A stretch of 64,000 nucleotides of DNA from Dehalococcoidia bacterium (GCA_040882355.1 JBBEBM010000017.1:1-64000); one strand, 5' to 3'; numbered from the stretch's first letter, positions 7,801 through 34,202 are shown. Translations and numbers: made by a program. Notes: generated by a model not told the origin, from the sequence alone.

Positions 7801-7824
7801 GGGCGGCTTGCGAGCCGGCTCTAC
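7797..7824. repeat. GTAG-family REP-like palindrome overlapping the stop codon
   Basis: GTAGGGGCGGCTTGCGAGCCGGCTCTAC, an imperfect copy of 9652-9679. Confidence 0.7.
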
Positions 7825-7939
7825 AGAGGTCACTGAGCGCACCCGCGCTGGCCTGCCAAAGTGGCTACGGCGGGCTAGATTGTACAGCGCTCACCGCGTA
7901 CGCTGATCGCGGGCACCATCTCGATCAAGGAGGAGCATC

Positions 7940-18428: not shown

Positions 18429-18480
18429 TTGACAGCCTAGCTTCGATTCACTACAATAGATGACAAAGGCAGTCAGCTTT
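18429..18480 (+). promoter_or_regulatory. Sigma70 promoter with overlapping Rrf2-type operator
   Basis: TTGACA (18429-34), 17-bp spacer, TACAAT (18452-57); box ATAGATGACAAAGGCAGTCAGCTTT (18456-80) containing TGAC-N7-GTCA. Confidence 0.8.
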
Positions 18481-18521: not shown

Positions 18522-20291
18522 ATGGTTCGCGAGCTGACCCGTGAGGAGATGAGCGAGCTCGACCCGCTGGAAGCGGCGGAGATCGATAACTTCGAGAAAG
18601 AGGCGAAGGAGTTCGCTTCCGGTGGGGGTCTTGGCGACGACTTCCGGCCCTTCCGCCTGCAGCACGGCATCTACGGTCAGCGGCAGGACGACGCCCAGAT
18701 GATCCGGGTGAAGATCCCGCACGGCACGATGACGGCGGAGCAGATGGACGTGCTGGGCGACATCGCGGACGACTACACGCCGCGCAAGCTGGGCCACGTC
18801 ACGACGCGGCAGGACATCCAGTACCACTTCGTGACGCTGGAGGACACGCCGACGGTGATGCGCCTCCTCGCGCAGTCGGGCCTGACCACGCGCGAGGCGT
18901 GCGGCAACACCGTGCGCAACGTCACGGCCGACCACATGTCGGGCGTCTGCCCGGACACGGTCTTCGACGTCACGCCCTACGCGGAGGCGGCGGCGCAGTT
19001 CTTCCTGCGCAACCCGATCTGCCAGAAGCTGCCGCGCAAGTTCAAGATCGCGTTCTCGGCCTGCCAGCACGACCACGGCCTGGTGCCGATCCACGACCTG
19101 GGCGCTACCGCGGTCATCAAGGACGGCAGGCGCGGCTTCCGCGTCACGGTCGGCGGCGGGCTGGGCGCCGCGCCGATGGTCGCGGAAGTGCTCCAGGAGT
19201 TCGTGCCGGAAGACGAGCTGCTCCGCGTCACGGAGGCGACGATCCGCATCTTCGACCGGCACGGCGAGCGCAAGAACCGCAACAAGGCGCGCATCAAGTT
19301 CGTCGTCAAGAAGTACGGCATCGACGAAGTGCGCCGCCTGATCCGCGAAGAGGTCGACACGCTTCCGCCGGCCGAGAACGGCAACTACCGCGCGCCGGTG
19401 TGGTCGTTCCTCGAGGAGGATGCCTCGCATCCGTCGGCCGCGTCGCTCGGGCAGAACGGGCACGCCCCGCAGTCCGGGTTCGAGGCGTGGAAGCGGACGA
19501 ACGCGCTGCCGCAGTTGCAGCCGGGCTTTCACATGGCGTACGTGCTGCTCCCCATCGGCGACCTGACCGGAACACAGTTCCACCAGATCGCCGAGATGGC
19601 GCGCAAGTACTCCGGGGGCAAGGCGCGCACCACCGCGAACCAGAACATGGTGCTGCGCTGGGTGCACGAGGAGGACCTGCCCTCGCTCCACGCCGATCTG
19701 ATTGAGGCGGGCCTGGCCGAGGACGGGGCGCTCACGCTCACCGACGTGATGACCTGCCCCGGCGCGGACACGTGCAGCCTCGGCGTGACGTCATCGAAGG
19801 GGCTGGGCACTGCCCTGCGCGATTCCCTTCGCGCCTCCAACGGTCACTTCAAGGACGACCCGCTGGTCGAGCAGATCCGGATCAAGATCAGCGGCTGCCC
19901 CAACTCGTGCGGCCACCACCACATCGCCGACATCGGGTTCTACGGCAACGCCGTCCGCTCCGGCGAGCGCATGGTGCCTTCGTTCTCGATGCTGATCGCG
20001 GGCAAGGGCGACGGCCCGGACGCGCGCATCGCCAAGCACGTGATGAAGATCTCAGCGAAGCGCGTGCCGGACGCCGTCAACAGCCTGATCGACCACTACC
20101 GCGGGGACCGCAACGAGGGCGAGCCGTTCGGCGACTGGGCGATTCGCGTCGGCAACCCCCACATCCAGGAGGTGCTCGCGGAGTACAAGGAGATGCCGGT
20201 CTACGAGAAGGACCCGATGGCCTTCGTCGATTGGGGCGCCACTAAGCTCTTCAGCCTGGACGACATGGGCGAAGGGGAGTGCGCGGTCTAG
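18522..20291 (+). CDS. sir: Siroheme nitrite/sulfite reductase (assimilatory sulfite reductase by context)
   Basis: GIYGQR, TTRQDIQ, ACGNTVRN, LPRKFK, CPGADTC and GCPNSCG ligands. Confidence 0.92.
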   Translation: MVRELTREEMSELDPLEAAEIDNFEKEAKEFASGGGLGDDFRPFRLQHGIYGQRQDDAQMIRVKIPHGTMTAEQMDVLGDIADDYTPRKLGHVTTRQDIQYHFVTLEDTPTVMRLLAQSGLTTREACGNTVRNVTADHMSGVCPDTVFDVTPYAEAAAQFFLRNPICQKLPRKFKIAFSACQHDHGLVPIHDLGATAVIKDGRRGFRVTVGGGLGAAPMVAEVLQEFVPEDELLRVTEATIRIFDRHGERKNRNKARIKFVVKKYGIDEVRRLIREEVDTLPPAENGNYRAPVWSFLEEDASHPSAASLGQNGHAPQSGFEAWKRTNALPQLQPGFHMAYVLLPIGDLTGTQFHQIAEMARKYSGGKARTTANQNMVLRWVHEEDLPSLHADLIEAGLAEDGALTLTDVMTCPGADTCSLGVTSSKGLGTALRDSLRASNGHFKDDPLVEQIRIKISGCPNSCGHHHIADIGFYGNAVRSGERMVPSFSMLIAGKGDGPDARIAKHVMKISAKRVPDAVNSLIDHYRGDRNEGEPFGDWAIRVGNPHIQEVLAEYKEMPVYEKDPMAFVDWGATKLFSLDDMGEGECAV

Positions 20292-20366
20292 GCCGAACAC
20301 GACACGCCAGGTGAACTCGGACAGCGCTCGCCTACGGCGAGCGCGTCCATGACTACGGGAGAGGGC

Positions 20367-21116
20367 ATGACCCAGGTGAAGACCTACACTGCTGACGAGC
20401 TGGCGGCGATCAGCGCGGAGATGGAGGAGCAGACCCCCCGCGAGATCCTCCGGTGGGCGGTCGACGAGTTCTTTCCCGACGTCTCGCTGGCGTGCAGTTT
20501 CGGAGGCCCGTCCGGCATGGTGCTCATCGACATGATCGCCGAGATCGAGCCGCGCGTGGAGGTCTTCTACATCGACACCGACTTTCTGTTTCCGGAGACG
20601 TACGCGACGCGCGACCGCGTCATCGAGCGTTACGGCATCCGGCCCGTCGCCTACAAATCGCAGCTCACGCCGCAGGAGCAGGCGGCCAAGTACGGCGATG
20701 AGCTGTGGCTGAGCAATCCCGACCTCTGCTGCGGCGTGCGGAAGGTGGAGCCGAACCGCCGGGCGCTCGCCGGTAAGCGGGGCTGGATCTCGGGCCTGCG
20801 TCGCGACCAGGCGACGACGCGTCGTGACACGCCGGCTGTCCAGTGGGTGAACCAGTTTGAGCTGGTCAAGATCAACCCGCTGGTTCGCTGGACGGAGGGC
20901 GACATCTGGGCCTACATCGTCAAGCACGACGTGCCCTACAACCCGCTCCACGACCAGAACTACCCCAGCCTCGGCTGCACGTACTGCACACGAGCGGTCA
21001 GTCCGGGCGACGACCCGCGCTCCGGCCGCTGGCAGGGGAACGACAAGGTGGAATGTGGCATCCACCTGGACGGCGGGCTCGTGCCCATCGCCCGGGGTGA
21101 AGAGATTACAGGATAG
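20367..21116 (+). CDS. cysH: (Phospho)adenylyl-sulfate reductase, 4Fe-4S type
   Basis: [37 protein letters not shown]; alternative ATG at 20349. Confidence 0.95.
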
Positions 21117-21127
21117 AAGGGAAGGAC

Positions 21128-21679
21128 ATGCACGAATCCGGCTTCACGATCTGGTTCACCGGGCTCTCCGGCGCGGGCAAGACGACCATCGCCGAGCAGC
21201 TCGATCGCGTCCTGCGCGACCGCGGCCTCAAGGTCGAGAGTCTGGACGGCGACGTGGTGCGCACGCACCTGAGCAAGGGCCTCGGCTTCAGCAAGGAGGA
21301 CCGCGACACGAACATCCGGCGCATCGGGTTCGTCTGCCACCTGCTCTCGCGCAACGGAGTTGTCGCCATCGCCTCCGCCATCTCGCCCTACCGCGATATT
21401 CGAGACGAGGTGCGCGCGGAGATCGGCGACTTCGTCGAGGTGTACGCGAAGTGTCCGCTGGAGGTGCTCACAGAGCGCGACGTGAAGGGCCTCTACGCCA
21501 AGGCGATCAAGGGCGAGATCAAGAACTTCACCGGCGTCTCCGACCCCTACGAGGAGCCGCTCAACGCGGAGGTCGTGCTGGAAACGGATAAGGAGACGGA
21601 AGCCGAGAGCCTGACGAAGCTCGTCGGGAAGCTGGAGGAGCTGGGCTACCTTGCGCCGCTCTCGGAGCCGGTGAGCTAG
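21128..21679 (+). CDS. cysC: Adenylyl-sulfate kinase
   Basis: [40 protein letters not shown]. Confidence 0.97.
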
Positions 21680-21682
21680 GCC

Positions 21683-22876
21683 ATGGCGGAAGCGACGGTT
21701 TCACTCGACACCCTGATCCCGCCTCACGGCGGGACGCTCATCAATCGGGAAGTCACCGGCGACGAAGCCGCCGCGCTTGCCGGGAAGGCACGCTCGCTGC
21801 CCGCGCTTCGCCTGAACTCGCGGACGCTCTGCGACCTGGAGCTGCTCGCGATCGGCGGGTTCAGCCCGCTCGAAGGCTTCATGACGAACGCGGAGTACCG
21901 CTCGGTCGTCGACGCGATGCACCTGCCGGACGGGCTGCCCTGGTCGCTGCCAGTGACGCTCGCCGCGTCGCGTGAGGAAGCGGCGTCGCTGCGGGATGGC
22001 GCGCAGGTGGCGCTGGCCGACGCCGACGGCGCGCCGCTGGCGGTGCTCGACCTGGAGGAGCGCTTCGACTACGACAAGGAGCGCGAGGCGAAGCTCGCTT
22101 ACGGCACGACCGAGGACGCCCACCCGGGCGTCGCCGCGCTGTACGCTCAGGGCGACGCGCTGCTGGCGGGGCGCGTGACCGTCTTCCGCCGGCCGCCGGC
22201 CGCTTTCGCGGAGCACCGATTGACGCCTGCTCAGACGCGCGCGGCGTTCGTCGAGCGGGGCTGGCGAACGGTCGTCGGCTTCCAGACGCGGAACCCGGTC
22301 CACCGGGCGCACGAGTACATCCAGAAGTGCGCGCTGGAGATCGTCGACGGCCTGCTGCTCCACCCGCTCGTCGGGGACACGAAAGGCGACGACATCCCCG
22401 CCGACGTGCGCATGCGCTGCTATCAGGTGCTGCTGGACGGCTACTACCCAGCGGACCGCGTGCTCCTGTCGGTGCTGCCCGCCGCGATGCGCTACGCCGG
22501 CCCGCGCGAGGCGATCTTCCACGCCATCGTGCGCAAGAACTACGGCTGCTCGCACTTCATCGTCGGGCGCGACCACGCCGGCGTTGGCAGCTACTACGGC
22601 ACGTACGACGCGCAGAAGATCTTCCTGGAGTTCGCGCCGGGCGAGCTGGGCATGACGCCGCTCTTCTTCGAGCACACGTTCTTCTGCCGCGCCTGCGAGG
22701 GCATGGCGAGCAGCAAGACCTGCCCGCACGAGAACGATCAACGCATCGCGCTCTCCGGCACCAAGGTGCGCGAGCTGCTCGCGGCGGGCGAGGCGCCGCC
22801 CCACGAGTTCACCCGGCCCGAAGTGGCGCAGGTGCTGATCGAGGCGATGTCACGGACGGTGCCTGCGGGAGGCTAG
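21683..22876 (+). CDS. sat: Sulfate adenylyltransferase
   Basis: [41 protein letters not shown]. Confidence 0.97.
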
Positions 22877-24049
22877 GTGAACGAGCCTGAGGCCCGTAGC
22901 GGCATCGTCCTCGCGCCCCGAGTCTTCGTCCACCCCGATGCGGCGGAGGAGCAGGTGACGAAAGCCGAGGCCGCGACCCCAGGGCACGCGACTCCAGGCC
23001 GGCTCCGGCTCGCCGGGCCAGTCGCCCTGCGAGTCGTCTACGTCGTTGGCGCGCTGGCGCTCTTCATCCTCTCGCTGGAGTTGATGAAGTCGGGGGCGCG
23101 AGGGCTGGAGCCGATCCTCGAACGAATTTCGGCGGATGGCGCGGCGGGCATGCTCGGTTTCGGCTGGCTGGGATCGTACATCGTCCTGAGCGGGTCGCCG
23201 GTCGCGGCGATCTCGCTCAGCCTCTTCAGCGGCGGCGTCGTCAGCGACATCGAGAGCTTCGCGATGATCAACGGCAGCCGGCTCGGGGCGTCGTTCATCG
23301 TGCTGTTCGTGGGCTTCATCTACTATCTCACGCGCAAACGCGACCCGGACAGCATCTACATCGGTGTCGTTGCGCTGCTCACGGCGTTCACACTCTGGGC
23401 GCCCGTCGTGCCCATCGGCATACTGGTTCTGCGCGAGGGCTGGTTCGACGGTGTGAGCGCCGGCTCGCCGGGCGCGCTGGTGTCGCTCGTCGACGTCATC
23501 TACGACCCGATCGTGGCGCGCGCCGACGACCACCTGCCGCGCCTGGCGCTCTTCGCGCTGGGAGTGCCCGTGCTGCTGGGCTCGTTCTTCGTCTTCGACC
23601 GCGTGCTGCCCAACCTGGAGAGCCCGGGGCCGACCTTCGAGCGGATCTCGCGGCTGGCCAGCCAGCGCCTGCCGATGTTTGGCTTCGGCGCGGGCGTGAC
23701 CCTGCTCACGCTATCGGTCTCTCTCTCGCTGACGATTCTCGTGCCGCTCACGCTCAAGGGCTACTTGCGCCGCCAGCACCTGATCCCCTACATCATGGGC
23801 GCGAATATCGCGACCTGGATCGACACGCTGTTCGCGTCGCTGTTGCTGGACACTCCGCACGCGTTCACCATCGTCTTCACGCAGATGGTCGTGGGCGCCG
23901 CCATCTCGCTCTTCGTGCTCATCTTCCTCTATGGGCCGTACTCGCGCGCGATCCTTACGCTCGCCCACAAAGCGACGGCGAACCGCCGTGGGTTCGTGGT
24001 CTTCCTCAGCGCGATCCTGCTGATGCCGCTGCTACTGCTGGCGGTGTGA
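22877..24049 (+). CDS. Membrane transporter, Na+/Pi cotransporter-like
   Basis: Two repeats (LSGS...INGSRLG; LSVS...IMGANIAT) and about ten TM segments; starts 1 nt after the sat stop. Confidence 0.75.
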   Translation: MNEPEARSGIVLAPRVFVHPDAAEEQVTKAEAATPGHATPGRLRLAGPVALRVVYVVGALALFILSLELMKSGARGLEPILERISADGAAGMLGFGWLGSYIVLSGSPVAAISLSLFSGGVVSDIESFAMINGSRLGASFIVLFVGFIYYLTRKRDPDSIYIGVVALLTAFTLWAPVVPIGILVLREGWFDGVSAGSPGALVSLVDVIYDPIVARADDHLPRLALFALGVPVLLGSFFVFDRVLPNLESPGPTFERISRLASQRLPMFGFGAGVTLLTLSVSLSLTILVPLTLKGYLRRQHLIPYIMGANIATWIDTLFASLLLDTPHAFTIVFTQMVVGAAISLFVLIFLYGPYSRAILTLAHKATANRRGFVVFLSAILLMPLLLLAV

Positions 24050-24075
24050 GGGCCCTTGGGAGCGCCTGTGGGACA

Positions 24076-24107
24076 TGCTATAATTGTTGATGAAGATAGT
24101 AAACTTT
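24076..24107 (+). promoter_or_regulatory. Extended -10 promoter with Rrf2-type operator
   Basis: TGCTATAAT (24076-84); box ATTGTTGATGAAGATAGTAAACTTT (24083-107), 17/25 identical to 18456-80. Confidence 0.75.
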
Positions 24108-24128
24108 GAATCTGTGAAAGCGTGAGAC

Positions 24129-24569
24129 GTGAAGGTATCCACTAAGGGTGACTACGGGGTGCGCGCCCTCGTCGAGCTGGCCCATCGCTACGGGCAGGGC
24201 CCGGTGCAGAGCGCCGAGATCGCCTCGCGCCAGGAGATCCCGGAGCCGTACCTGGACCAGCTCCTGACGCAGCTCCGCCGCGCCGGCTTCATTCGCAGCG
24301 TGCGCGGCCCCCAGGGCGGCCACGCGTTGATCCGCGAGCCCGACGAGGTGAAGCTGAGCGAGGTGATGAGCGCGCTCGAAGGATCGCTGGCGCCGATCGC
24401 GTGCGTGGACGATCCAAAGGCCTGCACCAGATCGGGCGGCTGCGTCCAGCGCGAGGTCTGGGAACGCGTGCGTGACGCCACATTCGATATCCTAAACGGC
24501 GTATCGATCGCCGATCTTGCCGAGAAGGAGCGCGAGCACAGCCACAATGGTGGACGCTACTACATCTGA
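24129..24569 (+). CDS. Rrf2 family transcriptional regulator (CymR/IscR-like)
   Basis: STKGDYG.RAL, PYLDQLL..L, SVRGPQGG; three Cys (C-x6-C-x5-C) in the C-terminal half. Confidence 0.93.
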   Translation: MKVSTKGDYGVRALVELAHRYGQGPVQSAEIASRQEIPEPYLDQLLTQLRRAGFIRSVRGPQGGHALIREPDEVKLSEVMSALEGSLAPIACVDDPKACTRSGGCVQREVWERVRDATFDILNGVSIADLAEKEREHSHNGGRYYI

Positions 24570-25512
24570 CCTGCGCGAGCTGAAGCCTTCGGTGCGCTCC
24601 GGCGAGGAGATCGCCGGCAGCGTGCTCGATCTCGTGGGCAACACGCCACTCGTGCGGCTGCAGCGCGTCGTGCCGGAGGGCGCGGCCGAAGTGCTCGCCA
24701 AGCTCGAGTCGGCCAACCCGGCCGGCAGCGTCAAGGACCGGATCGCCTTGAGCATGATCGAGGACGCGGAAGCGCGCGGCACGCTGACACCCGGCGCGAC
24801 GATCGTCGAGCCGACGAGCGGCAACACCGGCATCGGCCTGGCGATGGTCGCCGCGGTCAAGGGCTACCGCCTGATCCTGACGATGCCGGAAGACATGAGC
24901 GTCGAGCGCCGCAAGCTCTTCACGCGCTTCGGAGCGGAGCTCGTCCTCACCCCCGCCATCGAGGGGATGTCGGGCGCCGTCTTCGCCGCCCAGGAGATGG
25001 TGGAGAAGCACGGCTACTTCATGCCCCAGCAGTTCAACAACCAGGCGAACCCGGAAGCGCACCGCCGCACCACCGGGCCCGAGATCCTGAAGGCCACGGA
25101 CGGGCGGATCGATGCCTTCGTGGCGGGTGTGGGCACCGGCGGTACGATCACCGGTGTCGGCGAAGTCCTGAAGCAGCAGACCCCGGACGTGCTCATCGTC
25201 GCGGTGGAGCCGGCGCGCTCGCCCGTGCTCGCGGGCGGCAAGGCGAGCCTCCACGGCATCCAGGGCATCGGCGCGAGCTTCGTACCAGGCGTGCTCAATC
25301 GCGAGATTTACGACGAGCTTGTCGCCGTGACCGACGAAGACGCCTTCGCGATGTGCGCGCGTCTGACGAAGGAGGAGGGCCTGCTGGTGGGTATCTCCGC
25401 CGGCGCCAACGTGCTCGCCTCGATCCAGATCGCCGCGAGGCTCGGCGCGGGCAAGCGGGTCGTTACGATTTTGCCCGACACGGGCGAGCGGTACCTGAGC
25501 GTGAACCTGTGA
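24547..25512 (+). CDS. cysK: Cysteine synthase A (O-acetylserine sulfhydrylase)
   Basis: GNTPLV, NPAGSVKDR, EPTSGNTG, QQFNN.AN, GTGGT, HGIQGIG, PDTGERYLS; overlaps the Rrf2 3' end. Confidence 0.95.
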   Translation: MVDATTSDLRELKPSVRSGEEIAGSVLDLVGNTPLVRLQRVVPEGAAEVLAKLESANPAGSVKDRIALSMIEDAEARGTLTPGATIVEPTSGNTGIGLAMVAAVKGYRLILTMPEDMSVERRKLFTRFGAELVLTPAIEGMSGAVFAAQEMVEKHGYFMPQQFNNQANPEAHRRTTGPEILKATDGRIDAFVAGVGTGGTITGVGEVLKQQTPDVLIVAVEPARSPVLAGGKASLHGIQGIGASFVPGVLNREIYDELVAVTDEDAFAMCARLTKEEGLLVGISAGANVLASIQIAARLGAGKRVVTILPDTGERYLSVNL

Positions 25513-25545
25513 TGGTTGGGAGCATTTCGACGCACACCTGCACGT

Positions 25546-25612
25546 GTAGCCCGGGGTCTTGAGACCCCAAGGGCGAAGCCGCCCGGGCTGAAGACCCCGC
25601 CAGACCTGCAAC
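25546..25612. repeat. GTAG-family REP pair
   Basis: GTAGCCCGGGGTCTTGAGACCCC followed by an inverted-type unit CGGGCTGAAGACCCCG. Confidence 0.6.
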
Positions 25613-25683
25613 AGACGCAAGCATCGCCGGACTCAGCGAGCAACCGGCGAGAGCAGACAGACTCCCAGGTGGAGGACAGATCG

Positions 25684-26820
25684 ATGAGCGTAACAGTCTA
25701 TATTCCCACCCCGTTTCGCAGGATGACGGGGAACCGAGCGTACATCCCGGTGGAAGGCGAGACGATCGCCGAAGTGCTGGACAACCTGGACCACCAGTTC
25801 CCAGGCGTGCACGACCTGATCTACAGCAGCCAGCACGAGCTGCCGGCGCACATCAACATCTACGTGAACAACCAGGAGATCACCAGCTTGCAGGGCGACG
25901 CCACCCGCCTCTCCGAGGGCGACCAGATCGCGATCATCCCCGCCATCGCGGGCGGCAGCGCCGGCGACGGCGGCGGCGACGGGGCGCAGCCGATCGTGCT
26001 GACGCCGGAGCAGGTGAACCGCTACTCGCGCCACATCATCATGGGCCCGGTGGGCAGCACGGGCCAGCGCAAGATCATCGGGTCGAAGGTGCTGATGGTC
26101 GGCGCGGGCGGGCTCGGCTCGCCGGTGGCGCTCTACCTGGCACTCGCGGGCGTCGGCACGCTCGGCATCGTCGACTTCGACGTCGTCGATCTGTCGAACC
26201 TGCAGCGGCAGATCCTCCACCAAAACGACGACATCGGCAAGCCGAAGGTCGTCTCGGCGAAGGAGACGCTGAACGCCTACAACCCGGACGTCAACGTGAT
26301 CACCCATGAGCTGCCCCTCACGTCCGACAACGCAATCGAGATCATCTCGCAGTACGACATCGTGGTGAACGGAGCGGACAACTTCGCGGCGCGCTACCTG
26401 GTGAACGACGCCTGCGTATTTCTCAAGAAGCCGCTGGTGGACGGCAGCATCCTCCTCTTCGACGGCCAGGCTACGACATACCTGCCGGGTAAGGGCTGCT
26501 ACCGCTGCCTCTTCCCGCAGCCGCCGCCGCCCGGCCTGGTGCCGAGCTGCGCGGAGGCGGGCGTGCTGGGCGCGCTCTGCGGGCTGGTCGGCTCGATCCA
26601 GGCGACGGAGGCGCTGAAGCTCATCCTTGGCATCGGCGACCCGCTCAGCGGGCGCCTCCTGATCATCGATGCGCTCTCGATGGAGGTCCGCGCGCTCAAG
26701 ATCCGGCGCGACCCGAACTGCGTGGTCTGCGGCGACAACCCAACGGTGACCGAGCTGATCGACTACGACGCGTTCTGCGGCGCCGCGCCTCATGCCGACG
26801 CGGTATCCGCCGAAGCGTAG
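25684..26820 (+). CDS. Fusion of MoaD/ThiS/CysO ubiquitin-like domain and MoeB/ThiF (E1-like) adenylyltransferase
   Basis: ATG after GGAGG; beta-grasp domain ending PAIAGG, linker SAGDGGGDG, then RYSRH, GAGGLG, SNLQRQ, DNF, CYRC, PSCAEAG, CVVC; no rhodanese tail. Confidence 0.92.
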   Translation: MSVTVYIPTPFRRMTGNRAYIPVEGETIAEVLDNLDHQFPGVHDLIYSSQHELPAHINIYVNNQEITSLQGDATRLSEGDQIAIIPAIAGGSAGDGGGDGAQPIVLTPEQVNRYSRHIIMGPVGSTGQRKIIGSKVLMVGAGGLGSPVALYLALAGVGTLGIVDFDVVDLSNLQRQILHQNDDIGKPKVVSAKETLNAYNPDVNVITHELPLTSDNAIEIISQYDIVVNGADNFAARYLVNDACVFLKKPLVDGSILLFDGQATTYLPGKGCYRCLFPQPPPPGLVPSCAEAGVLGALCGLVGSIQATEALKLILGIGDPLSGRLLIIDALSMEVRALKIRRDPNCVVCGDNPTVTELIDYDAFCGAAPHADAVSAEA

Positions 26821-26934
26821 GGTGCGCACGGCCGGTGGACGGGGTATATTGTGCCGCACCGCCAACTGAAGTCGGCGGCGTGGCATGATGACGGTCATTC
26901 GGCTGCGGGCCGAGACCTCAGGGGTGGAGGAAGC

Positions 26935-27222
26935 ATGGCAGTTGAAGTACGCGTGACGGCAACGCTCCAGAACCTCGTTGGGGGGAAGAGTGTGAACGGC
27001 GACGGGACGACCGTGGGCGAGCTGCTGACGGACCTGGACTCACGCTATCCTGGCTTTCGCGCCCAGATCAGCGGCGAGGACGGCCAGCTCCACCGCTTCG
27101 TCAACATCTACCTGAACGACGAAGACATCCGCTACCTCCAGGCGCTCGAGACCCCGCTCAGCGAAGGCGACGTCGTGTCGATTCTCCCCGCGCTGGCCGG
27201 CGGCGGCACGCCAGCCGCATGA
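26935..27222 (+). CDS. CysO/MoaD-like sulfur carrier protein with C-terminal extension
   Basis: ATG after GGAGG; LHRFVNIYLNDEDIR; ends LPALAGG-GTPAA. Confidence 0.9.
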   Translation: MAVEVRVTATLQNLVGGKSVNGDGTTVGELLTDLDSRYPGFRAQISGEDGQLHRFVNIYLNDEDIRYLQALETPLSEGDVVSILPALAGGGTPAA

Positions 27223-27542
27223 TCTCCGAGCCGGTCGAGACCTGGATGAACCTCAAGCGGCTCGCTGCCACGGGATACGGCACGGGGGCCGTGCTGAACG
27301 ACGTGGAGCGCGGCAAGCTCGGCATCTCGCCGAGCTTCCTTGTGTTCAGCGACGGCCACAACAAGCGCAGCGGATGGATCCTGCGCGACCGCGTCGACGC
27401 CGTCCAGGTCGAAGAGAACGTGATCCGCCTGCTCGCCGCCGGGGTCGTCTATCACCTGGAGCTGGAAGGCGCAGCCGACGCAACGAAGCTCAGCGAACTG
27501 CTGAGCGACGAGCCCGGCCCCGACGAGGACGAGGACGCCTAG
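27219..27542 (+). CDS. Hypothetical protein with acidic tail
   Basis: ATGA overlap with the Ubl gene; stop 4 nt before cysM; normal codon usage. Confidence 0.75.
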   Translation: MISEPVETWMNLKRLAATGYGTGAVLNDVERGKLGISPSFLVFSDGHNKRSGWILRDRVDAVQVEENVIRLLAAGVVYHLELEGAADATKLSELLSDEPGPDEDEDA

Positions 27543-27546
27543 CGCG

Positions 27547-28485
27547 ATGCTGTACGCCAGCCTCATCGACACCATCGGCAACACGCCGCTCGTGGAGCTG
27601 CAGCGGCTCAGCCCGAAGCCGGGCGTGCGACTGTTCGCCAAGCTCGAAGGGCAGAACCCGACAGGCTCGGTCAAGGACCGCATCGCCAAGTACATGATCG
27701 AGGCGGCGGAAGCGTCGGGGGCGCTGACGCCGGACCGGATGGTGCTTGAGCCGACGAGCGGCAACACGGGCATCTCGCTGGCGATGATCTGCCGGATCAA
27801 GGGCTACCGGCTGAAGGTCGTGATGCCGGAGAGCGTGAGCGAGGAGCGCTCGCAGCTCCTGCGCGCGTTCGGCGCGGAGATCGTGCTGTCGGAAGGGCTC
27901 AAGGGCACGAACGGGTCGATCGCCGTCGCGCAGCAGATGGCGGCGGACGAGCCGAACTACTTCATGCCCTACCAGTACGGCAACGAGGCGAACCCGCGCG
28001 CCCACTACGAGACCACCGGCCCGGAGATCCTGCGCGACGTGCCGGAAATCGACGTCTTCATCGCGGGGCTGGGCACCGGCGGCACCCTAACCGGCGTCGG
28101 CCACTTCCTCAAGGAACGCAAGCCGGACGTGAAGGTCGTCGCGTGCGTGCCCCACCCGGGCGACCTGGTGCAGGGCCTTCGCAGCCTGGAGGAGGGCTTC
28201 ATCCCGCCCGTCCTCGACGAGACCGTGCTCGACGGCAAGATCGTGATCGACTCGCGGACGTCGTTCGCCGCGACGAAGGAGCTGACACAGAAGGAAGGCG
28301 TCTTCGCCGGCATCTCCGCGGGCGCTGTCCTGCGCACCGCCCAGCGCGTCGCGGAGCGGCTCGATAGCGGGAACATCGTCATGCTGCTCGCGGACGGTGG
28401 CTGGAAGTACCTCTCGACCTCACTCTGGAGCAAGGACTACGCCGACCTCAAGGAAGAGGAGATCGAGGGGAAGGTCTGGTGGTAG
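27547..28485 (+). CDS. cysM: CysM-type (sulfur-carrier-dependent) cysteine synthase
   Basis: NPTGSVKDR, YQYGN.AN, GLGTGGT, GLRSLEEGFIP, ADGGWKYLS and aromatic C-terminus KVWW, as in mycobacterial CysM. Confidence 0.88.
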   Translation: MLYASLIDTIGNTPLVELQRLSPKPGVRLFAKLEGQNPTGSVKDRIAKYMIEAAEASGALTPDRMVLEPTSGNTGISLAMICRIKGYRLKVVMPESVSEERSQLLRAFGAEIVLSEGLKGTNGSIAVAQQMAADEPNYFMPYQYGNEANPRAHYETTGPEILRDVPEIDVFIAGLGTGGTLTGVGHFLKERKPDVKVVACVPHPGDLVQGLRSLEEGFIPPVLDETVLDGKIVIDSRTSFAATKELTQKEGVFAGISAGAVLRTAQRVAERLDSGNIVMLLADGGWKYLSTSLWSKDYADLKEEEIEGKVWW

Positions 28486-29006
28486 CAAACGCGCTAGCAT
28501 TCGACATCAAAGAGACGACCACGCGGCTGAGCGACTCGCTGAGGACGATCGAGTGGGCGGTGTCACTCGTACCGGAGCAGTGGACGCACCGGCTGCCAGA
28601 GCACTACCCAGCGGACGCCTGGAGCGTAGCAATGAACATCGCGCACCTGGTGACGTACGAAGAAGGTCTGGCAGCGCCGATGCTGGAGGCCCTCGCCGCC
28701 GGATGCGACGGCACCGATGTGGTTGCCTCCGCGGACGAGCGGCTCGCCGACGCCGTCGCGATCGCCGATCAGCCGCTCGATGCGCTCATGGCGCGGTTGC
28801 GGTCGGCGCGGGGGCGGCAGATCGAGGTAGTGAAGGACTTTCCTGCGGAACGTTTCAGCGCGCCCCTGACCCCGCTTTGGGGCCGGCACTACCCACTCTA
28901 CGGCGACCATCTGCACTCAGCCGGTTGGGTGGCGAGCAAGACGTTCCAGCACACGTGGGAGCACGGCAATGCCATCCTGCGCGTCGCTCTCTATGCTCCG
29001 CGATGA
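28479..29006 (+). CDS. DinB family protein
   Basis: WSVAMNIAHL..YE and QHTWEH; overlaps the cysM stop by 7 nt. Confidence 0.8.
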   Translation: MVANALAFDIKETTTRLSDSLRTIEWAVSLVPEQWTHRLPEHYPADAWSVAMNIAHLVTYEEGLAAPMLEALAAGCDGTDVVASADERLADAVAIADQPLDALMARLRSARGRQIEVVKDFPAERFSAPLTPLWGRHYPLYGDHLHSAGWVASKTFQHTWEHGNAILRVALYAPR

Positions 29007-29039
29007 GATGTTGACTTAGTCGATAGGCTTCGATACCTT
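29007..29039 (+). promoter_or_regulatory. Internal sigma70 promoter with weaker Rrf2-like box
   Basis: TTGACT (29011-16), 17 bp, TACCTT (29034-39); GATGTTGACTTAGTCGATAGGCTTC partly matches the other two boxes. Confidence 0.55.
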
Positions 29040-29092
29040 TGAAGCGGCGGGGCTCCCGCCACCACATCGCATATCGCAAGGAGGTACACACG

Positions 29093-29926
29093 ATGCCCGG
29101 ACGGGAAGACGTGCTGGTCACCACAGATTGGGTCGCCGAGCACCTGAAGGACGCCAAGGTGAAGCTGATTGAGGTCGACGTGGACACCACAGCCTACGAC
29201 GAAGGCCATGTCGAAGGCGCTGTCGGCTTCAACTGGACGAGCCAGCTCCAGGACCAGGTGCGCCGCGACATCGCGACGAAGGGGCAGATCGAGCAGCTCT
29301 TGAGCGAGGCCGGCGCGAACAACGACGACACCATCGTCCTTTTCGGCGACAACAACAACTGGTTCGCCGCGTACGCGTTCTGGCTGCTGCGCATGTATGG
29401 CCACCAGAACCTGAAGCTGATGGACGGCGGGCGGAAGAAGTGGCTGGACGAAAGTCGCCCGACGACCAAGGACGCGCCGAAGCCCGCCCGCGCCAGCTAC
29501 AAGGCGAAGGACGCCGACCTGAGCCTGCGCGCCAAGCGCGACGAGGTGCTCGCCGGCATCAGCGACGGCAAGCACGCGCTCGTCGACGTGCGATCGCCGG
29601 ACGAGTACAACGGCAAGATCATGGCGCCGCCCGGCCTGCAGGAGACAGCCCAGCGCATGGGCCACATCCCGACAGCGCAGAGCGTGCCGTGGGCACAGGC
29701 CGTGCGCGAGGACGGCACCTTCAAGTCGGACGACGAGCTGAAGGCGCTGTACGCGCCGAAGGGCGTGACGGGCGACAAGGACGTGATCGCCTACTGCCGC
29801 ATCGGCGAGCGCTCTTCGCACACGTGGTTCGCGCTCAAGTACCTGCTCGGCTACCCCAACGTCAAGAACTACGACGGCTCGTGGACGGAGTGGGGCAGCA
29901 TGGTCGACATGCCGATCGAGAAGTAG
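29093..29926 (+). CDS. Tandem-domain rhodanese / thiosulfate sulfurtransferase (SseA/CysA type)
   Basis: ATG after AAGGAGG; YDEGH, DVRS..EY.G, GHIP, YCRIGERS active loop, YDGSWTEW. Confidence 0.95.
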   Translation: MPGREDVLVTTDWVAEHLKDAKVKLIEVDVDTTAYDEGHVEGAVGFNWTSQLQDQVRRDIATKGQIEQLLSEAGANNDDTIVLFGDNNNWFAAYAFWLLRMYGHQNLKLMDGGRKKWLDESRPTTKDAPKPARASYKAKDADLSLRAKRDEVLAGISDGKHALVDVRSPDEYNGKIMAPPGLQETAQRMGHIPTAQSVPWAQAVREDGTFKSDDELKALYAPKGVTGDKDVIAYCRIGERSSHTWFALKYLLGYPNVKNYDGSWTEWGSMVDMPIEK

Positions 29927-29954
29927 GCAACCGCGCCGAAGATCCACGCTCCAG

Positions 29955-30467
29955 ATGTCCGAGGAACGACAGATCACGTCGAGCAAGCCGCGCATGCCCG
30001 CGGCCTACGGCCTGGGCGCGGCGACGACGCGGCCTGGCGAGCGGCTGTCGTGGGAGCGCGCCGGCGAGCTGCTCGCTGCGTCGAAGAACTACTGGGTGTG
30101 CACCAGCCGCCCGGACGGCCGCCCCCATGCGATGCCGGTCTGGGGGCTCTGGCTCGACGGCTGCGTCTACTTCTCGACCGGGCGCGACTCGCGCAAGGCG
30201 CTGAACCTCGCGGCCCAGCCGTACGCGGTCGTCCACCTGGAGAGCGGCGATGAGGCGGTGATCGTCGAGGGAACGGTTGCGGAGGTGCGCGGCGTCTCGA
30301 TCCTGGAGCGCCTGCACAGCGCGTACGAGAAGAAGTATGGCATGCGGCCGGACCTGAACGCGCTGAAGGCGGCGTTCTACGTCGTTCGACCGAAGGTGGT
30401 CTTTGGCTGGCTGGAGCCCGACTTCCCGGAGAGCGCGACCCGCTGGCGGATCGAGGATGGTCGCTAG
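29955..30467 (+). CDS. Pyridoxamine 5'-phosphate oxidase-like protein
   Basis: YW..T.RPDGRPHAMPVWG.W, SRKA.NL, ATRW. Confidence 0.85.
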   Translation: MSEERQITSSKPRMPAAYGLGAATTRPGERLSWERAGELLAASKNYWVCTSRPDGRPHAMPVWGLWLDGCVYFSTGRDSRKALNLAAQPYAVVHLESGDEAVIVEGTVAEVRGVSILERLHSAYEKKYGMRPDLNALKAAFYVVRPKVVFGWLEPDFPESATRWRIEDGR

Positions 30468-30468
30468 C

Positions 30469-30846
30469 ATGGCCGACGACGCGAACCCTTACGTCGCGCT
30501 GCTCTACCGGCGCGCGTTTGCCGCGCAGGACCCCGCGCTGGTGCAGGTCAGCTTCGACGTGGCGGTCCTCGACAGGTATCGCGGGCAATCGAACTACTCG
30601 CTGATCCGCACGAACAGCGCCGGCCGCCTCAAGCGCGAGGGCGCCTGGGCGATCGACTTCGGCATCAGCGAAGACGACCGCACGATCCACGCGGGGCTGC
30701 AAGAGCTGTTCCACGCCCTGCCGGAGCCGGAGCGGGAGCACTGGGCGCTGCACGTCGCGACGCTGCCCATGAGCCGCAACTTCCTCCAGATGCGCCTTTC
30801 GGCGGGCGCGTGCATCGACGACGGCGAGGTGCGGGACTGGGCGTGA
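30469..30846 (+). CDS. Hypothetical protein
   Basis: MADDANPY...FDVAVLDRY...WAIDFGI...LPEPEREHW...GACIDDGE; ATG 1 nt after the upstream stop (alternative ATG 30457). Confidence 0.75.
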   Translation: MADDANPYVALLYRRAFAAQDPALVQVSFDVAVLDRYRGQSNYSLIRTNSAGRLKREGAWAIDFGISEDDRTIHAGLQELFHALPEPEREHWALHVATLPMSRNFLQMRLSAGACIDDGEVRDWA

Positions 30847-30884
30847 GGGCGCCCCGTTTGAGGGCGCTACTATAGGAGAAGACG

Positions 30885-31313
30885 ATGCTGACGATACCGC
30901 GCCAGTGTTTCGACGAGATCGCCGCCCACTCCAACCAGGAGTACCCGAACGAGTGCTGCGGCATCCTGATCGGCGCAGGTGACGAGATCCGCGAGGTGCT
31001 GCGCGGGCGCAACGTGCTGGAGAGCCCCTACAAGTACCAGATCCACCCACTGGACGTGCGCAAGGCCGACGACCTCGCCCGCGAACGCGACCTCGACATC
31101 CTCGCGTTCTACCACTCGCACACGGCCATCGACGCGACGAAGGTGACCGAGGCGTACCCCTCTGAGACCGACATCAACCACGCGAAGGCGATCCAGAACC
31201 TCTTCCAGGGCTACTACTTGATCATGACGCTCAAGGACCGCGACGCGCCGGAACTCCGCGCCTTTCGGATCATCGACGGAACGGTGGACGAGCAAGAGCT
31301 GCAGATCGTCTAG
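30885..31313 (+). CDS. JAMM/MPN+ (M67) metalloprotease, Mec-like
   Basis: PNECCG, FYHSH, YPSETD; SD AGGAG. Confidence 0.92.
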   Translation: MLTIPRQCFDEIAAHSNQEYPNECCGILIGAGDEIREVLRGRNVLESPYKYQIHPLDVRKADDLARERDLDILAFYHSHTAIDATKVTEAYPSETDINHAKAIQNLFQGYYLIMTLKDRDAPELRAFRIIDGTVDEQELQIV

Positions 31314-31500
31314 TCTCGAAGGAGGCCGGTCGTGGCCAACGAGGCCTCCGCAGCGCGTTCTCCGTCGAGCGGCAGGTGCAGATCAGCGCGCCGATGACGT
31401 AGTGGCCGCGATTCCTCGGCCGGCGACGACGGGCGGCCGGCGCGCGTTGTCGCGATGCGTGGGAGGGGTAGGAGGCGAACAGCCCCGCAGTCTTCGGGCG

Positions 31501-31611
31501 GGACATTCTGGTGGACATTCCTTTGGACACGCCCTAGGCCAAAACTGCTATAATCGTATCTGGATTCAGCGAGTTCATGGGGACATTCCTGTGGATATTT
31601 TGCTGGACATT
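31501..31611 (+). promoter_or_regulatory. Two triads of GGACATT direct repeats flanking an extended -10 promoter
   Basis: Units at 31501/31513/31525 and 31581/31593/31605 (12-bp period); TGCTATAAT at 31546-54. Confidence 0.75.
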
Positions 31612-31631
31612 TGCGATAGCGAGGACCTATT

Positions 31632-32765
31632 CTGCCTGTCTGGAATGTCACTTTTGACACTCGTGTCGATGTCGGAGCGCCGGACATCGTTGCTGCGGCT
31701 GCGCAGGCCGAGGCACTTGCGCGCGTCATCCGAGAGATCCCGATTCCCCCCGCGGTACAGCATCGAATCGACGCGCTGAACATTCTCAGAGCTGTTCGAG
31801 GGACGACAGGGATCGAGGGCGTCGAGCTGTCGGAAGAGGACGTCCGGCGCATCATTTCATCGCCTCCGCCCGCCGGCGCAGCTACCTCCAGTCGCGCCAG
31901 AGAAGAGCGGGAGGTCAGGAATGCCGCGCGCGTGATGGAGTACGTTGCTGAGGTGATCCGAGGAAACCCGGCGACCCCGCTCACCGAAGCCATGATCTGC
32001 AGGATTCATGAGCTCACCACCGAAGGCGTTGACTACCCGCACAACGAGCCAGGCCATTACCGCGAGCATCCCGCTTCCGCCGGCACGTACGTCCCTCCCC
32101 GAACCGGCGATGAGATCCGCTCCCTGATGAAGCAGTTCATCCAGTGGTTCAACGAAGGTCCGCCTCGCGCCTGGCCCACACCCGTCAGCGCTATCATCGC
32201 GCACTTCTATGTGGTCAGCATCCACCCCTTCGGCGATGGTAATGGCCGCACATCGAGGGCAGTCGAAAGCTTCCTCCTCTTCAGAAGCGGGATCAATGCT
32301 CGCGGATTCTACTCGCTGGCCAACTTCTACTATCAGAACCGAGCCGAATACGTGGCCTTGCTCGATAGAGTACGATTCGAGACCAACGGGAACCTGACGC
32401 CATTCGTCCGATTTGCTCTGAATGGGCTCGTAGAAGAGCTCACTGGCGTCCATCGGGCGGTGCTGGATGAAGTCAAGATCATCGCCTTCCGCGACTACGC
32501 CCGCGATCTCTTGATGGCTCAGCGGAAGCTGGGCACGAAGCCGGGCGAACGGCTGTACCACTTCTTGCTGGGCCTGGCCGGAGAGCCAGAGGTCTCGCTA
32601 ACAGCCCTGCGAAGAGGCGGGCACTGGCTGTCAGAGTCCTACCGAAACGTTACGCCAAAGACGCTGAGCCGCGATCTCAACTTTCTGCTCTCCAATCACT
32701 TGGTGGTTGTTGATGGCGATACGATTCGAGCAAACCTTGACATCATGAACGAGTTCGTACCCTAG
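31632..32765 (+). CDS. Fic family protein with N-terminal inhibitory motif and C-terminal HTH; probable CTG start
   Basis: HPFGDGNGRTSR; frame is open from 31620 and contains TTGIEG upstream of the first canonical start (31932); GAGGA lies 6 nt before CTG 31632; C-terminal VTPKTLSRDL. Confidence 0.85.
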   Translation: MPVWNVTFDTRVDVGAPDIVAAAAQAEALARVIREIPIPPAVQHRIDALNILRAVRGTTGIEGVELSEEDVRRIISSPPPAGAATSSRAREEREVRNAARVMEYVAEVIRGNPATPLTEAMICRIHELTTEGVDYPHNEPGHYREHPASAGTYVPPRTGDEIRSLMKQFIQWFNEGPPRAWPTPVSAIIAHFYVVSIHPFGDGNGRTSRAVESFLLFRSGINARGFYSLANFYYQNRAEYVALLDRVRFETNGNLTPFVRFALNGLVEELTGVHRAVLDEVKIIAFRDYARDLLMAQRKLGTKPGERLYHFLLGLAGEPEVSLTALRRGGHWLSESYRNVTPKTLSRDLNFLLSNHLVVVDGDTIRANLDIMNEFVP

Positions 32766-32780
32766 CCTGCGGATAACTCC

Positions 32781-34202
32781 TCATCGGGCGGCGACGGGCG
32801 GGCGGCGCTTCCAGAAGCTGGTCGCTTGTTCGAAGGCGTGGGCCAACTGGAGCACGCCGAAGTCGTCGTGGTGGCGACCGACGATCTGCACGCCGACGGG
32901 CAGGCCGTCCGTCGTGAATCCGCACGGTACGGAGATGGCAGGCAGGCCAACCACGGTGATGTAGTAACACGACTTCATCCAGTCGATGTACGTGCCCATC
33001 TTCACGCCGTTTATCTGCTCGACGTAGCGCTGCTCGACCGGGAACGGCGGCACCTGGTTCACGGGGAGAACCAGGAATTCGTACGTTTCCAGAAAGGCGC
33101 GCACGTGATGGAAGAGCGCGGTGCGCTTCACCTCGGCCCGCCCGACGTCCGCGCCGCTTAGCCGCTGGCCCTGCTCGATGTTCCAGAGGACAGTCTCCTT
33201 CATTTCGTGGCGGTGCTCCGCCAGCAGCCCGCCCAGGAGCAGCTCGAAGCTCCAGGCCCGCAGCGTGTGGAAGACCTCGTCCGCATCAGCGAAGTCGGGC
33301 TCGCCGTCCTCGACCTCGCAACCGAGAGACTCGAAGACGGGTCGTTGCGCGTCGATGACGGCGGTCACCGCCGGCTCGACCGGCAGCCCGCCGAGGTCGC
33401 GGCTCCAGGCAACGCGGACGCCGCGAAAGTCGCGCTCGAGCGGGCGCGAGAACGCGCTGCCAGGCTCGCTGATGGAGATCGGCGATCGCGGATCAGGACC
33501 GGCGATCACGCTGAGCATGAGCGCGACGTCCTGAACCGCGCGCGCCATCGGGCCCTGAACGTCCAACGTCGCCCATGCGGCTCTGGCGGGCCAGATGGGC
33601 ACCCTGCCCGGCGACGGCCGGAACCCCACCACATTGCAGAAGTTGGCCGGGTTGCGCAGCGACCCACCCATGTCCGAACCATCGGCGAGCGGGACCATGC
33701 CGCACGCAAGGGCCACCGCCGCGCCGCCGCTGCTGCCACCGCAGGTCTTGGTTGTGTCGTACGGATTGAGGGTCTCGCCGAAGACTTCGTTGTAGGTCTG
33801 CGATCCGGCGCCAAACTCGGGAGTGTTCGTCTTTCCGATCGTGATCGCTCCCGCGTTCCGCAGCCGCTCAACAATCAGGGCGTCCTCGTTCGGCACGAAG
33901 TCCCTGAAGATCGGCGAGCCGAAGGTTGTACGGATGCCCTTCGTGAGGGTCATGTCCTTGTGGGCGACCGGTATCCCGTGCAACGGGCCCACGTCGTCGC
34001 CCTTGGCGAGCGCTTCGTCGGCGTTCGCGGCGCGCGCCAGCACCTGCTCGGCTACCAGCGTGACGACGGCGTTCACGAGCGGGTTGACGCGCTCGATCTG
34101 TTCGAGGTGAGCCTGCACGATCTCTCGGGACGACAGCTCCCTTGCGCGGACCAGCCGGGCCAGGTCCGTCGCTGAGAGAAAGCAGATGTCCATACGAGGC
34201 AC
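32781..34202 (-). CDS. Amidase signature family enzyme
   Basis: GPLHGIPVAHKD, GKTNTPEF, GGSSGG, GSDMGGSLRNPA. Confidence 0.95.
   Translation of the reverse strand: MPRMDICFLSATDLARLVRARELSSREIVQAHLEQIERVNPLVNAVVTLVAEQVLARAANADEALAKGDDVGPLHGIPVAHKDMTLTKGIRTTFGSPIFRDFVPNEDALIVERLRNAGAITIGKTNTPEFGAGSQTYNEVFGETLNPYDTTKTCGGSSGGAAVALACGMVPLADGSDMGGSLRNPANFCNVVGFRPSPGRVPIWPARAAWATLDVQGPMARAVQDVALMLSVIAGPDPRSPISISEPGSAFSRPLERDFRGVRVAWSRDLGGLPVEPAVTAVIDAQRPVFESLGCEVEDGEPDFADADEVFHTLRAWSFELLLGGLLAEHRHEMKETVLWNIEQGQRLSGADVGRAEVKRTALFHHVRAFLETYEFLVLPVNQVPPFPVEQRYVEQINGVKMGTYIDWMKSCYYITVVGLPAISVPCGFTTDGLPVGVQIVGRHHDDFGVLQLAHAFEQATSFWKRRPPVAAR

Follow-up and report, generated by a model that had tools for sequence, protein, structure and literature searches.

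A CysO-like sulfur carrier encoded in frame with its E1-like enzyme in a Dehalococcoidia sulfur-assimilation array, and its proposed release by a JAMM peptidase

The cysteine cluster and its fused carrier

The DNA considered here is a window of 64,000 nucleotides (the whole stretch that was analysed; GCA_040882355.1, JBBEBM010000017.1:1-64000) from a member of the Chloroflexota (class Dehalococcoidia) that lives in soil or sediment and whose genome assembly is 93.9% complete in 82 contigs. It carries a sulfur-assimilation array of 12.8 kb (18522-31313), all on the + strand, the downstream part of which is a close-packed run of genes (24129-31313, +) from an Rrf2 regulator through a Prok-JAB peptidase. 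Within that run lies the subject of this work, a ubiquitin-like (Ubl) sulfur carrier encoded in frame with an E1-like adenylyltransferase, and with it a second, stand-alone carrier, a CysM-type sulfhydrylase, a rhodanese and a JAMM peptidase. An initial annotation of the locus had named the JAMM enzyme, CysM, a stand-alone rhodanese and two unknown open reading frames, and Pfam agrees on all of them, the frames at 27219-27542 and 30403/30472-30846 being without a family. It had also recognized a CysO/CysM/Mec-type pathway with an E1 that lacks a rhodanese of its own, an assignment borne out by Pfam and by homology to the chains of the solved structure 3dwg.

The fusion is a single uninterrupted frame (25684-26820, +) of 378 amino acids, for which Pfam reports matches to ThiS (residues 6-91, E 3.8e-13) and to ThiF (residues 114-347, E 5.5e-85). 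Its N-terminal domain, Ubl1 (residues 1-91; 25684-25956), is a CysO-like beta-grasp carrier that ends in AGG (G90, G91), after which 287 residues follow. These comprise a low-complexity linker, SAGDGGGDGAQPIV (25957-25998), at the start of which a cut between G91 and S92 is proposed, and an E1-like adenylyltransferase of the MoeB/ThiF type (25999-26820), so that the junction reads ...IPAIAGG|SAGDGGGDGAQP..., just as first described. Only 31 residues lie between the ThiF match and the C-terminus, and the E1 lacks a rhodanese domain. Almost no variation is seen at C289 or in the two CxxC pairs, C272/C275 and C346/C349, of this enzyme, which is the sole ThiF-family (PF00899) match in the genome.

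A fusion of this kind could be an artefact of assembly or sequencing that hides a stop codon or frameshift between two genes, a concern already voiced in the initial annotation together with the call for a survey of homologues. That survey found ThiS and ThiF together (Pfam) in 119 of the 120 best homologues, which stem from independent assemblies, the sole exception being P0003, a protein of 462 amino acids with ThiF only. The related-locus set used throughout holds 80 loci from named genome assemblies. All are from the Chloroflexota, with Dehalococcoidia or Tepidiformaceae as the label on most; 55 of them have the fused form, 24 have an E1 without a fused carrier (by blastp), and one is interrupted by a contig end. 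A cultured relative, Tepidiforma flava (L018), shares the operon. Moreover, the fused form occurs in 58 of 151 genomes sampled from the class and tabulated by hand, complete chromosomes included. The junction itself is spanned, with zero differences and no gap, by contigs from two public runs (25853-26297 and 25943-26297), which may include the sample of origin, and G+C content at third codon positions (GC3) is steady at 0.93 throughout the frame. Against this background the risk of an artefact is negligible, even though two bases are inserted behind 25965, within the linker, in a contig of run X2 with low depth (5 of 44), and one related genome (L085) has the carrier and E1 parts in different, overlapping frames. 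The X2 insertion, like an RNA-library contig of a relative in which 9 bases stand in place of 42 linker bases, fits an unconstrained linker. The contigs of the RNA run X20 are all short and come from relatives, each with 5-17 differences, and they are uninformative on transcription of the locus.

The second carrier, Ubl2 (26935-27222, +), is a stand-alone CysO-like protein of 95 amino acids with a Pfam ThiS match above cut-off (E 2.8e-17), and its stop codon overlaps the ATG of the next frame, orf107. Its best solved relatives are 4n6e_B (E 1.4e-20) and 3dwg_C (E 7.7e-20), both over the full length; that of Ubl1 is 3dwg_C (E 1.2e-14), in an end-to-end alignment that includes the C-terminal Gly-Gly, and the ThiS score of Ubl1 is 50.2 bits against a Pfam cut-off of 22.5. 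The Gly-Gly of both carriers aligns with the last two residues of 4n6e_B and of 3dwg_C, which is the CysO chain in a CysO-CysM complex, and by this homology Ubl1 and Ubl2 are both CysO-type carriers.

Ubl2 ends ...LAGG|GTPAA, with the Gly-Gly at residues 89-90. The view of both carriers as blocked precursors is thus correct for this cluster, in which neither has a free Gly-Gly, but it does not describe a conserved design. Orthologues of Ubl2 come after the fusion gene in related loci, and among the 51 with complete ends 20 have a free Gly-Gly, 16 have one additional residue, eight have two and seven have 3-20, the tails being unrelated to one another. Judged by these ends, the tail of Ubl2 is not a conserved blocked-precursor feature; it looks like drift, variable and probably neutral, and tolerated since a trimming JAMM enzyme is present. 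Two of the orthologues (L001:4263-4634 and L051:9055-9438) end with a tandem ...PALAGG repeat.

The internal Gly-Gly of the fusion

The carrier end within the fused protein has been kept over considerable distances. No substitution of G90 or G91 occurs among 65 aligned fused proteins with identities as low as 40%, and all 119 close fused homologues have xGG before a linker that is hypervariable in both length and composition. Among distant fused representatives (of clusters at 50% identity) with a Pfam ThiS match, the ThiS domain ends in xGG in 14 of 14, and three further distant representatives (P0186, P0191 and P0212) have ...SGG. An AlphaFold2 (AF2) model of the fusion (mean predicted local distance difference test score, pLDDT, 87.9; predicted template modelling score 0.77) is confident in both domains, while residues 89-100, with a pLDDT below 50, are disordered.

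It is conceivable that Ubl1 never leaves the E1, being instead a permanent domain with a docking, dimerizing or autoinhibitory (pseudo-substrate) role; only Ubl2 would then serve CysM, and the JAMM enzyme would act as a Mec-type hydrolase and tail trimmer. A domain that is never activated would have no evident need for Gly-Gly, yet the pair is invariant in the 65 aligned sequences, and the linker behind it is entirely unconserved. For some relatives, the linker is only a few residues long before the first E1 helix (GG-AGAAM-TPEMVERYSRH), and this would make a carrier tail held in cis near the active site geometrically conceivable. Split forms, in contrast, speak for a carrier that has to end at its Gly-Gly. 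One Ubl1 orthologue (L086) ends in AGG followed by VR, with the E1 in a separate gene, and another carrier (L089, from a genome without a strong JAB match) stops immediately before the E1 gene, so that split forms end at the Gly-Gly or two residues beyond it.

Polyproteins that include JAB itself also speak against a permanent domain. Their existence means that protease and fused carrier have been joined by gene fusion in other lineages: P0129 is a JAB-ThiS-rhodanese-ThiF polyprotein of 634 amino acids, P0186 is JAB-Ubl-ThiF-rhodanese, and P0267 is JAB-ThiF. Other architectures among the distant representatives are ThiS-ThiF-rhodanese and ThiS-rhodanese-ThiF.

A candidate processing enzyme

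The last gene of the array (30885-31313, +) encodes a JAMM/MPN+ metallopeptidase (Prok-JAB, Mec-like; E 2.8e-19). It is the only Prok-JAB above cut-off in the genome, in which a second, weak JAB match falls in a frame that reads as RadC-like. The catalytic residues E23, H77, H79, S93 and D96 are all intact and are invariant in 14 aligned sequences. When residues 1-108 of the fusion were modelled together with the JAMM enzyme, the complex scored 0.65, a value that 58 of 80 solved complexes attained, as did 2 of 110 mismatched pairs, and the best of three controls scored 0.00. At least 88% of contacts are common to the runs, the partner pLDDT is at least 86, and G90 and G91 of Ubl1 touch all five of the JAMM residues named above. 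The model places the GG-S bond at the metal site, which is indirect support for the predicted cleavage there and weighs against a permanent Ubl1 domain.

Taken together with the invariant Gly-Gly, the split forms and the JAB-containing polyproteins, this makes release of Ubl1 by the JAMM enzyme of the cluster the best-supported reading, to which we would give a probability of about 0.65. The initial annotation had assigned to this enzyme both the maturation of the carriers and the release of the product; that view stands as the best-supported one, with the qualification that the co-occurrence of JAB genes adds nothing to it. Its further ideas, of the enzyme as a regulatory gate and of protein conjugation through the second carrier, are speculative. 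Prok-JAB (E <= 1e-10) was found in 57 of the 58 fused genomes of the class sample, in 53 of the 55 that have only an unfused E1 orthologue (at least 58% identity), and in 2 of the remaining 38. As an argument for cleavage this distribution was rejected, being non-discriminating. Because JAB is equally frequent in fused and unfused genomes, it tracks the E1/CysO system as a whole and not the fusion, as expected for a Mec-type, cysteine-releasing enzyme.

Further observations weigh against release by this enzyme. The JAMM protein has a 6-residue insertion between HSH and PSxTD, in the metal-binding segment, so that the distance from HSH to S is 13 residues instead of 7, and only three homologues, all close ones, share it. 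It is also just about 40% identical to the JAMM proteins of loci whose E1 is more than 80% identical, and it is possible that a foreign JAMM gene has replaced the original. Of the 55 fused loci, only 19 have a JAMM gene in the flanking sequence obtained, many of those contigs being short. The complex model may have passed through memory of solved JAMM-Ubl complexes, which would signal family likeness and not binding of this particular pair. One fused representative, P0235, is without a Gly-Gly. Finally, a literature search found no experiment on cleavage, adenylation or thiocarboxylation of any Ubl-E1 fusion, and the stand-alone Ubl2 in the same operon corresponds to the argument by which Iyer et al. 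(2006) proposed a non-carrier role for the fused Ubl (PMC1779556).

Several of these points favour an uncut Ubl1 in particular. In nearly all fused loci the fusion gene is followed by one for a stand-alone carrier, the co-occurrence that Iyer et al. took as a sign of another role (PMC1779556), and the equal frequency of JAB in unfused genomes and the absence of the Gly-Gly from P0235 point the same way. Set against the conservation of the Gly-Gly and the end points of the split carriers, they leave a permanent, uncut domain unlikely.

It is also conceivable that Ubl1 is released, but by another protease or through self-cleavage, the JAMM enzyme merely hydrolysing carrier-cysteine adducts. The divergence of the JAMM protein and its insertion would suit such a division of labour, as would the one fused genome without JAB (G117, 93% complete), and the protease for the MoaX fusion of Mycobacterium tuberculosis was described in 2015 as 'as yet unidentified' (PMC4326299). 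JAMM enzymes have nevertheless been reported to cleave linear Ubl fusions in Deinococcus (PMC8832034) and Haloferax (PMC4443979). JAB is moreover fused to, or directly adjacent to, Ubl-E1 in several lineages (in the fused genomes G003, G025, G047, G073 and G094 the fusion gene is immediately followed by that for JAB). With the catalytic residues of the JAMM enzyme intact and the complex model passing its controls, release by a different protease is quite improbable.

The case for JAMM-mediated release is best seen against the sulfur carriers of the whole genome, a pattern that the initial annotation did not include. The inventory holds one ThiF-family match, one Prok-JAB above cut-off and six ThiS-family domains, and five of the six carriers are blocked: Ubl1 by the E1, Ubl2 by GTPAA, a CysO-like carrier on contig C43 by a single alanine, a MoaD by MoaE and a ThiS by ThiO. 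The C43 carrier (AGG+A; L081:6028-6309, -) is encoded just downstream of a pyridoxal 5'-phosphate (PLP) enzyme (6756-8015, -), a threonine-synthase-like protein of 419 amino acids with an N-terminal zinc-ribbon-like stretch, and in several relatives a carrier/PLP-enzyme pair of this type lies 5-7 kb upstream of the cysteine cluster. By gene content the C43 pair looks like a carrier-dependent homocysteine route, one that presumably resembles the MetM/MetO route. The MoaD~MoaE fusion (C57; L083:4423-5130, -) has 235 amino acids, with ThiS at 5-81, MoaE at 90-201 and the junction ...VSGG|AGEGDA..., a type of fusion that JAMM enzymes are reported to cut in Deinococcus. The ThiS~ThiO fusion (C29; L084:963-2348, -), the third carrier polyprotein of the genome, joins ThiS to a ThiO-like oxidase dependent on flavin adenine dinucleotide, via GGG and a basic linker, in a protein of 461 amino acids, and its gene adjoins that for thiamine-phosphate synthase. 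The sixth carrier, on C9, has a free Gly-Gly and lies downstream of an aldehyde:ferredoxin oxidoreductase gene. Since there is one E1 and one JAMM enzyme for carriers of which five of six are blocked, the JAMM enzyme is probably a general maturase for the cysteine, homocysteine, molybdopterin and thiazole sulfur carriers.

Neighbouring genes and the proposed pathway

CysM (27547-28485, +) is, by sequence, probably of the type that depends on a carrier thiocarboxylate and uses O-phosphoserine. Its best solved relative, the CysM of the CysO-CysM complex (3dwg_A/3dki_A, 'O-phosphoserine sulfhydrylase', E 2.6e-92), aligns over residues 3-311, including the C-terminal tail. A second synthase gene, cysK (24547-25512, +; the start is uncertain, the listed frame beginning at 24517), encodes a classical O-acetylserine sulfhydrylase A (PALP E 3e-75) whose best solved relatives are cysteine synthases A (9jxu and 2egu, E about 1e-113). 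Because this CysK is an ordinary O-acetylserine sulfhydrylase and a cysE match above its cut-off is found elsewhere in the genome, the classical and the carrier-dependent cysteine routes coexist. The rhodanese (29039-29926, +; E 2.1e-36, in two stretches) is a two-domain protein of the thiosulfate/3-mercaptopyruvate sulfurtransferase type and the likely persulfide donor. Its orthologues (63-64% identity) directly follow CysM in six of the 80 related loci and in L087 and L088.

Upstream of cysK, Pfam identifies a series of sulfate-assimilation genes, all on the + strand: sulfite reductase (18522-20291), 3'-phosphoadenosine 5'-phosphosulfate/adenosine 5'-phosphosulfate (PAPS/APS) reductase (20349-21116), APS kinase (21128-21679), ATP sulfurylase (21683-22876) and a permease of the Na/Pi-cotransporter family (22877-24049). 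The Rrf2-family regulator (CymR/IscR type; 24129-24569, +; Pfam Rrf2 E 7.2e-40) follows, in a position kept in related loci. Two strong sigma-70-like sites precede the sulfite reductase gene (18429-18457; promoter-like, 11 of 12 consensus matches) and the Rrf2 gene (24056-24084), both being consensus matches only. Terminator-like sites, nine against 6.6 +/- 2.8 in shuffled sequence, show no excess and give no operon limits, and an Rfam scan of 22000-33000 at E <= 1 returned a chance match to a microRNA family and no riboswitch. A candidate cysteine leader peptide between cysK and the fusion (25513-25562; 16 codons, two of them for cysteine) was dropped as a regulatory element, because the region ahead of the fusion gene held no counterpart in any of the 55 related fused loci; a script for such mini-frames gave four matches in 56 entries, namely this frame itself and three unrelated ones. 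Just past the cluster, downstream of the JAMM gene, a gene for a Fic/DOC-family protein (31932-32765) lies in a stretch where G+C content falls to 59-63%.

The frame between Ubl2 and CysM, orf107 (27219-27542, +; 107 amino acids, no Pfam family), is coding-like (GC3 0.91) and has an acidic tail; no homologue was found in the 80 related loci, and 40 other genomes of the order gave a single weak match (E 0.0011). Ubl2 and CysM are adjacent elsewhere, and by this comparison of gene order orf107 is a lineage-specific insertion. Its feature matches in Atlas (0.91-0.93) are to PH/GRAM-type clusters, a lead only, and it is possibly a bacterial PH/GRAM-like domain. A DinB_2 superfamily protein (28479-29006, +; Pfam E 4.4e-10) has no blastp match in the 80 related loci, and a protein with the pyridoxamine 5'-phosphate oxidase (PNPOx-like) fold (29955-30467, +; Pfam E 7.2e-13) has counterparts in the three closest loci with flanking sequence (L003, L037 and L053).

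The frame directly upstream of the JAMM gene, orf147 (30472-30846, +; 124-125 amino acids), likewise matches no Pfam family and is the least explained part of the cluster. An alternative start exists at 30403, the true one being most likely 30472. Its own family comprises 136 homologues, all unnamed, with 16 invariant positions (F29, V33, Y37, R47, R53, D63, G65, I66, P85, H91, S102, M108, C115, D118, G119 and W124). For an AF2 model with a pLDDT of 93, Foldseek against the PDB gave nothing at E <= 0.001, the highest Z from VIA-align, run against 48,161 chains, was 4.6, without a clear solved fold, and Atlas indicated no consistent family; from these searches neither novelty of the fold nor a function follows. 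Of the 151 class genomes, 28 have a member of the family, which in 19 of the 28 is encoded on the strand of the JAB gene and no more than 1.5 kb upstream of it (compared by hand). A partner or regulator of the JAMM enzyme, or a persulfide relay from the rhodanese, would be guesses at its role.

The closest parallel to the cluster is the protein-thiocarboxylate route to cysteine in M. tuberculosis (CysO, CysM, Mec+ and MoeZ), reportedly described by Burns and colleagues in 2005 and represented by the solved structures 3dwg, 3dwm and 3dki. Both systems have a CysO-type carrier, a CysM with a C-terminal tail, a small JAMM enzyme in the cluster and an E1-like adenylyltransferase, and in both the JAMM enzyme acts behind the Gly-Gly of the carrier, here by prediction. 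The differences are nonetheless considerable. There are two CysO paralogues in place of one, neither with a free Gly-Gly and one of them fused to the E1; the E1, unlike MoeZ, has no rhodanese, a separate two-domain rhodanese being present in the cluster; the JAMM enzyme has its 6-residue insertion; and the cluster adjoins the genes for CysK and an Rrf2 regulator and, with them, the entire sulfate-reduction block.

In the HcyS/HcyD system of Wolinella and the QbsE/QbsD system of Pseudomonas fluorescens, a JAMM enzyme removes a short extension from the C-terminus of the sulfur carrier. Ubl2 and the C43 carrier resemble HcyS and QbsE in ending with Gly-Gly and a few residues, and a JAMM gene is likewise nearby; the tail of the Ubl2 orthologues, in contrast, is not fixed: 31 of the 51 have one and 20 lack it. 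Eukaryotic ubiquitin precursors (polyubiquitin and ubiquitin-ribosomal protein fusions) are likewise linear fusions released after Gly-Gly, but this is an analogy only: the partner, the purpose and, mostly, the protease class differ, and no sign of an E2, an E3 or conjugation was found here.

Precursors in which an N-terminal carrier must be given a C-terminal Gly-Gly by cleavage of a larger protein have also been reported. MoaX (MoaD-MoaE) of M. tuberculosis works only after a cut between Gly82 and Ser83 (PMC4326299), DRJAMM of Deinococcus radiodurans cleaves a MoaD-MoaE fusion (PMC8832034), and HvJAMM1 of Haloferax volcanii is linked to a linear SAMP1-MoaE fusion (PMC4443979), so that a JAMM enzyme is the processing enzyme where one is named; this genome too encodes a JAMM enzyme and a MoaD~MoaE fusion. 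The partner in our case, unlike in these, is the activating E1 and not a downstream synthase subunit, and its cleavage is predicted.

The Ubl-E1 layout and its release by a JAMM enzyme had themselves already been proposed, in 2006 and 2010 (PMC1779556, PMC2948915). Iyer, Burroughs and Aravind predicted in 2006 that JAB proteins release fused ThiS/MoaD domains (PMC1779556), and Makarova and Koonin described in 2010 a 'Ubl-E1-TBP in Thaumarchaeota' that is said to be shared with bacteria (PMC2948915). The fusions of the 2006 paper, like ours, have an N-terminal Ubl on a ThiF/MoeB Rossmann domain together with a stand-alone ThiS/MoaD gene; in that paper, the Pelobacter Ubl-ThiF case sits with cysteine synthase genes, and operon type 4c (ThiS/MoaD, E1, JAB and cysteine synthase) includes a Chloroflexus (PMC1779556). 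Their fused domain is described there as 'distinct from ThiS', with a non-carrier role suggested (PMC1779556), whereas Ubl1, compared by that description, is a clear ThiS/CysO member with an invariant Gly-Gly.

The best explanation of the gene content is that the cluster forms the cysteine branch of the array and would work like the CysO/CysM/Mec protein-thiocarboxylate pathway. Gene content, homology, conservation, the genome inventory and model geometry are the observations from which the catalytic steps, the cut site and the cutting enzyme are predicted. Ubl1, a CysO paralogue, would be translated as the N-terminal part of the only E1 of the genome, and the JAMM enzyme would cut between G91 and S92, giving Ubl1-GG and free E1. 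The same enzyme would trim GTPAA from Ubl2 and other short tails, and may also cut the MoaD~MoaE and ThiS~ThiO fusions. The single E1 would then adenylate the exposed Gly-Gly of each carrier, and sulfur, either from the persulfide of the neighbouring rhodanese or from the sulfide of the upstream sulfite reductase, would convert it to the carrier thiocarboxylate. CysM would couple the thiocarboxylate to activated serine, and hydrolysis of the carrier-cysteine adduct by the JAMM enzyme would release cysteine and regenerate the carrier.

It is tempting to go one step further and to suggest that the JAMM cut is an obligatory licensing step. Uncut Ubl1 could shield the carrier site of the E1 in cis, and a single cut would then open the E1 to all six carriers and hand it the first of them as substrate. 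The activity of the JAMM enzyme, perhaps tuned by orf147 with its invariant His, Cys and Asp, would in that case act as a master switch on the sulfur supply for cysteine, homocysteine, molybdopterin and thiamin. Such a switch is speculative and rather unlikely.

The general picture of these pathways is unchanged by this work, the idea having been in print since 2006. If the cut were confirmed, the fusion would be a bacterial case in which a ubiquitin-fold protein and its E1 are produced as one polyprotein and a JAMM enzyme sets the former free, and the MoaD-MoaE precedent would then cover the activating enzyme as well. In the Chloroflexota this layout is very common, as its frequency in the class sample indicates, so that thousands of genes labelled only 'MoeB' or 'adenylyltransferase/sulfurtransferase' would be concerned. 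Moreover, with one E1, one JAMM enzyme and five of its six carriers blocked, this bacterium would offer a clean system for the question of whether a JAMM enzyme serves as a general carrier maturase.

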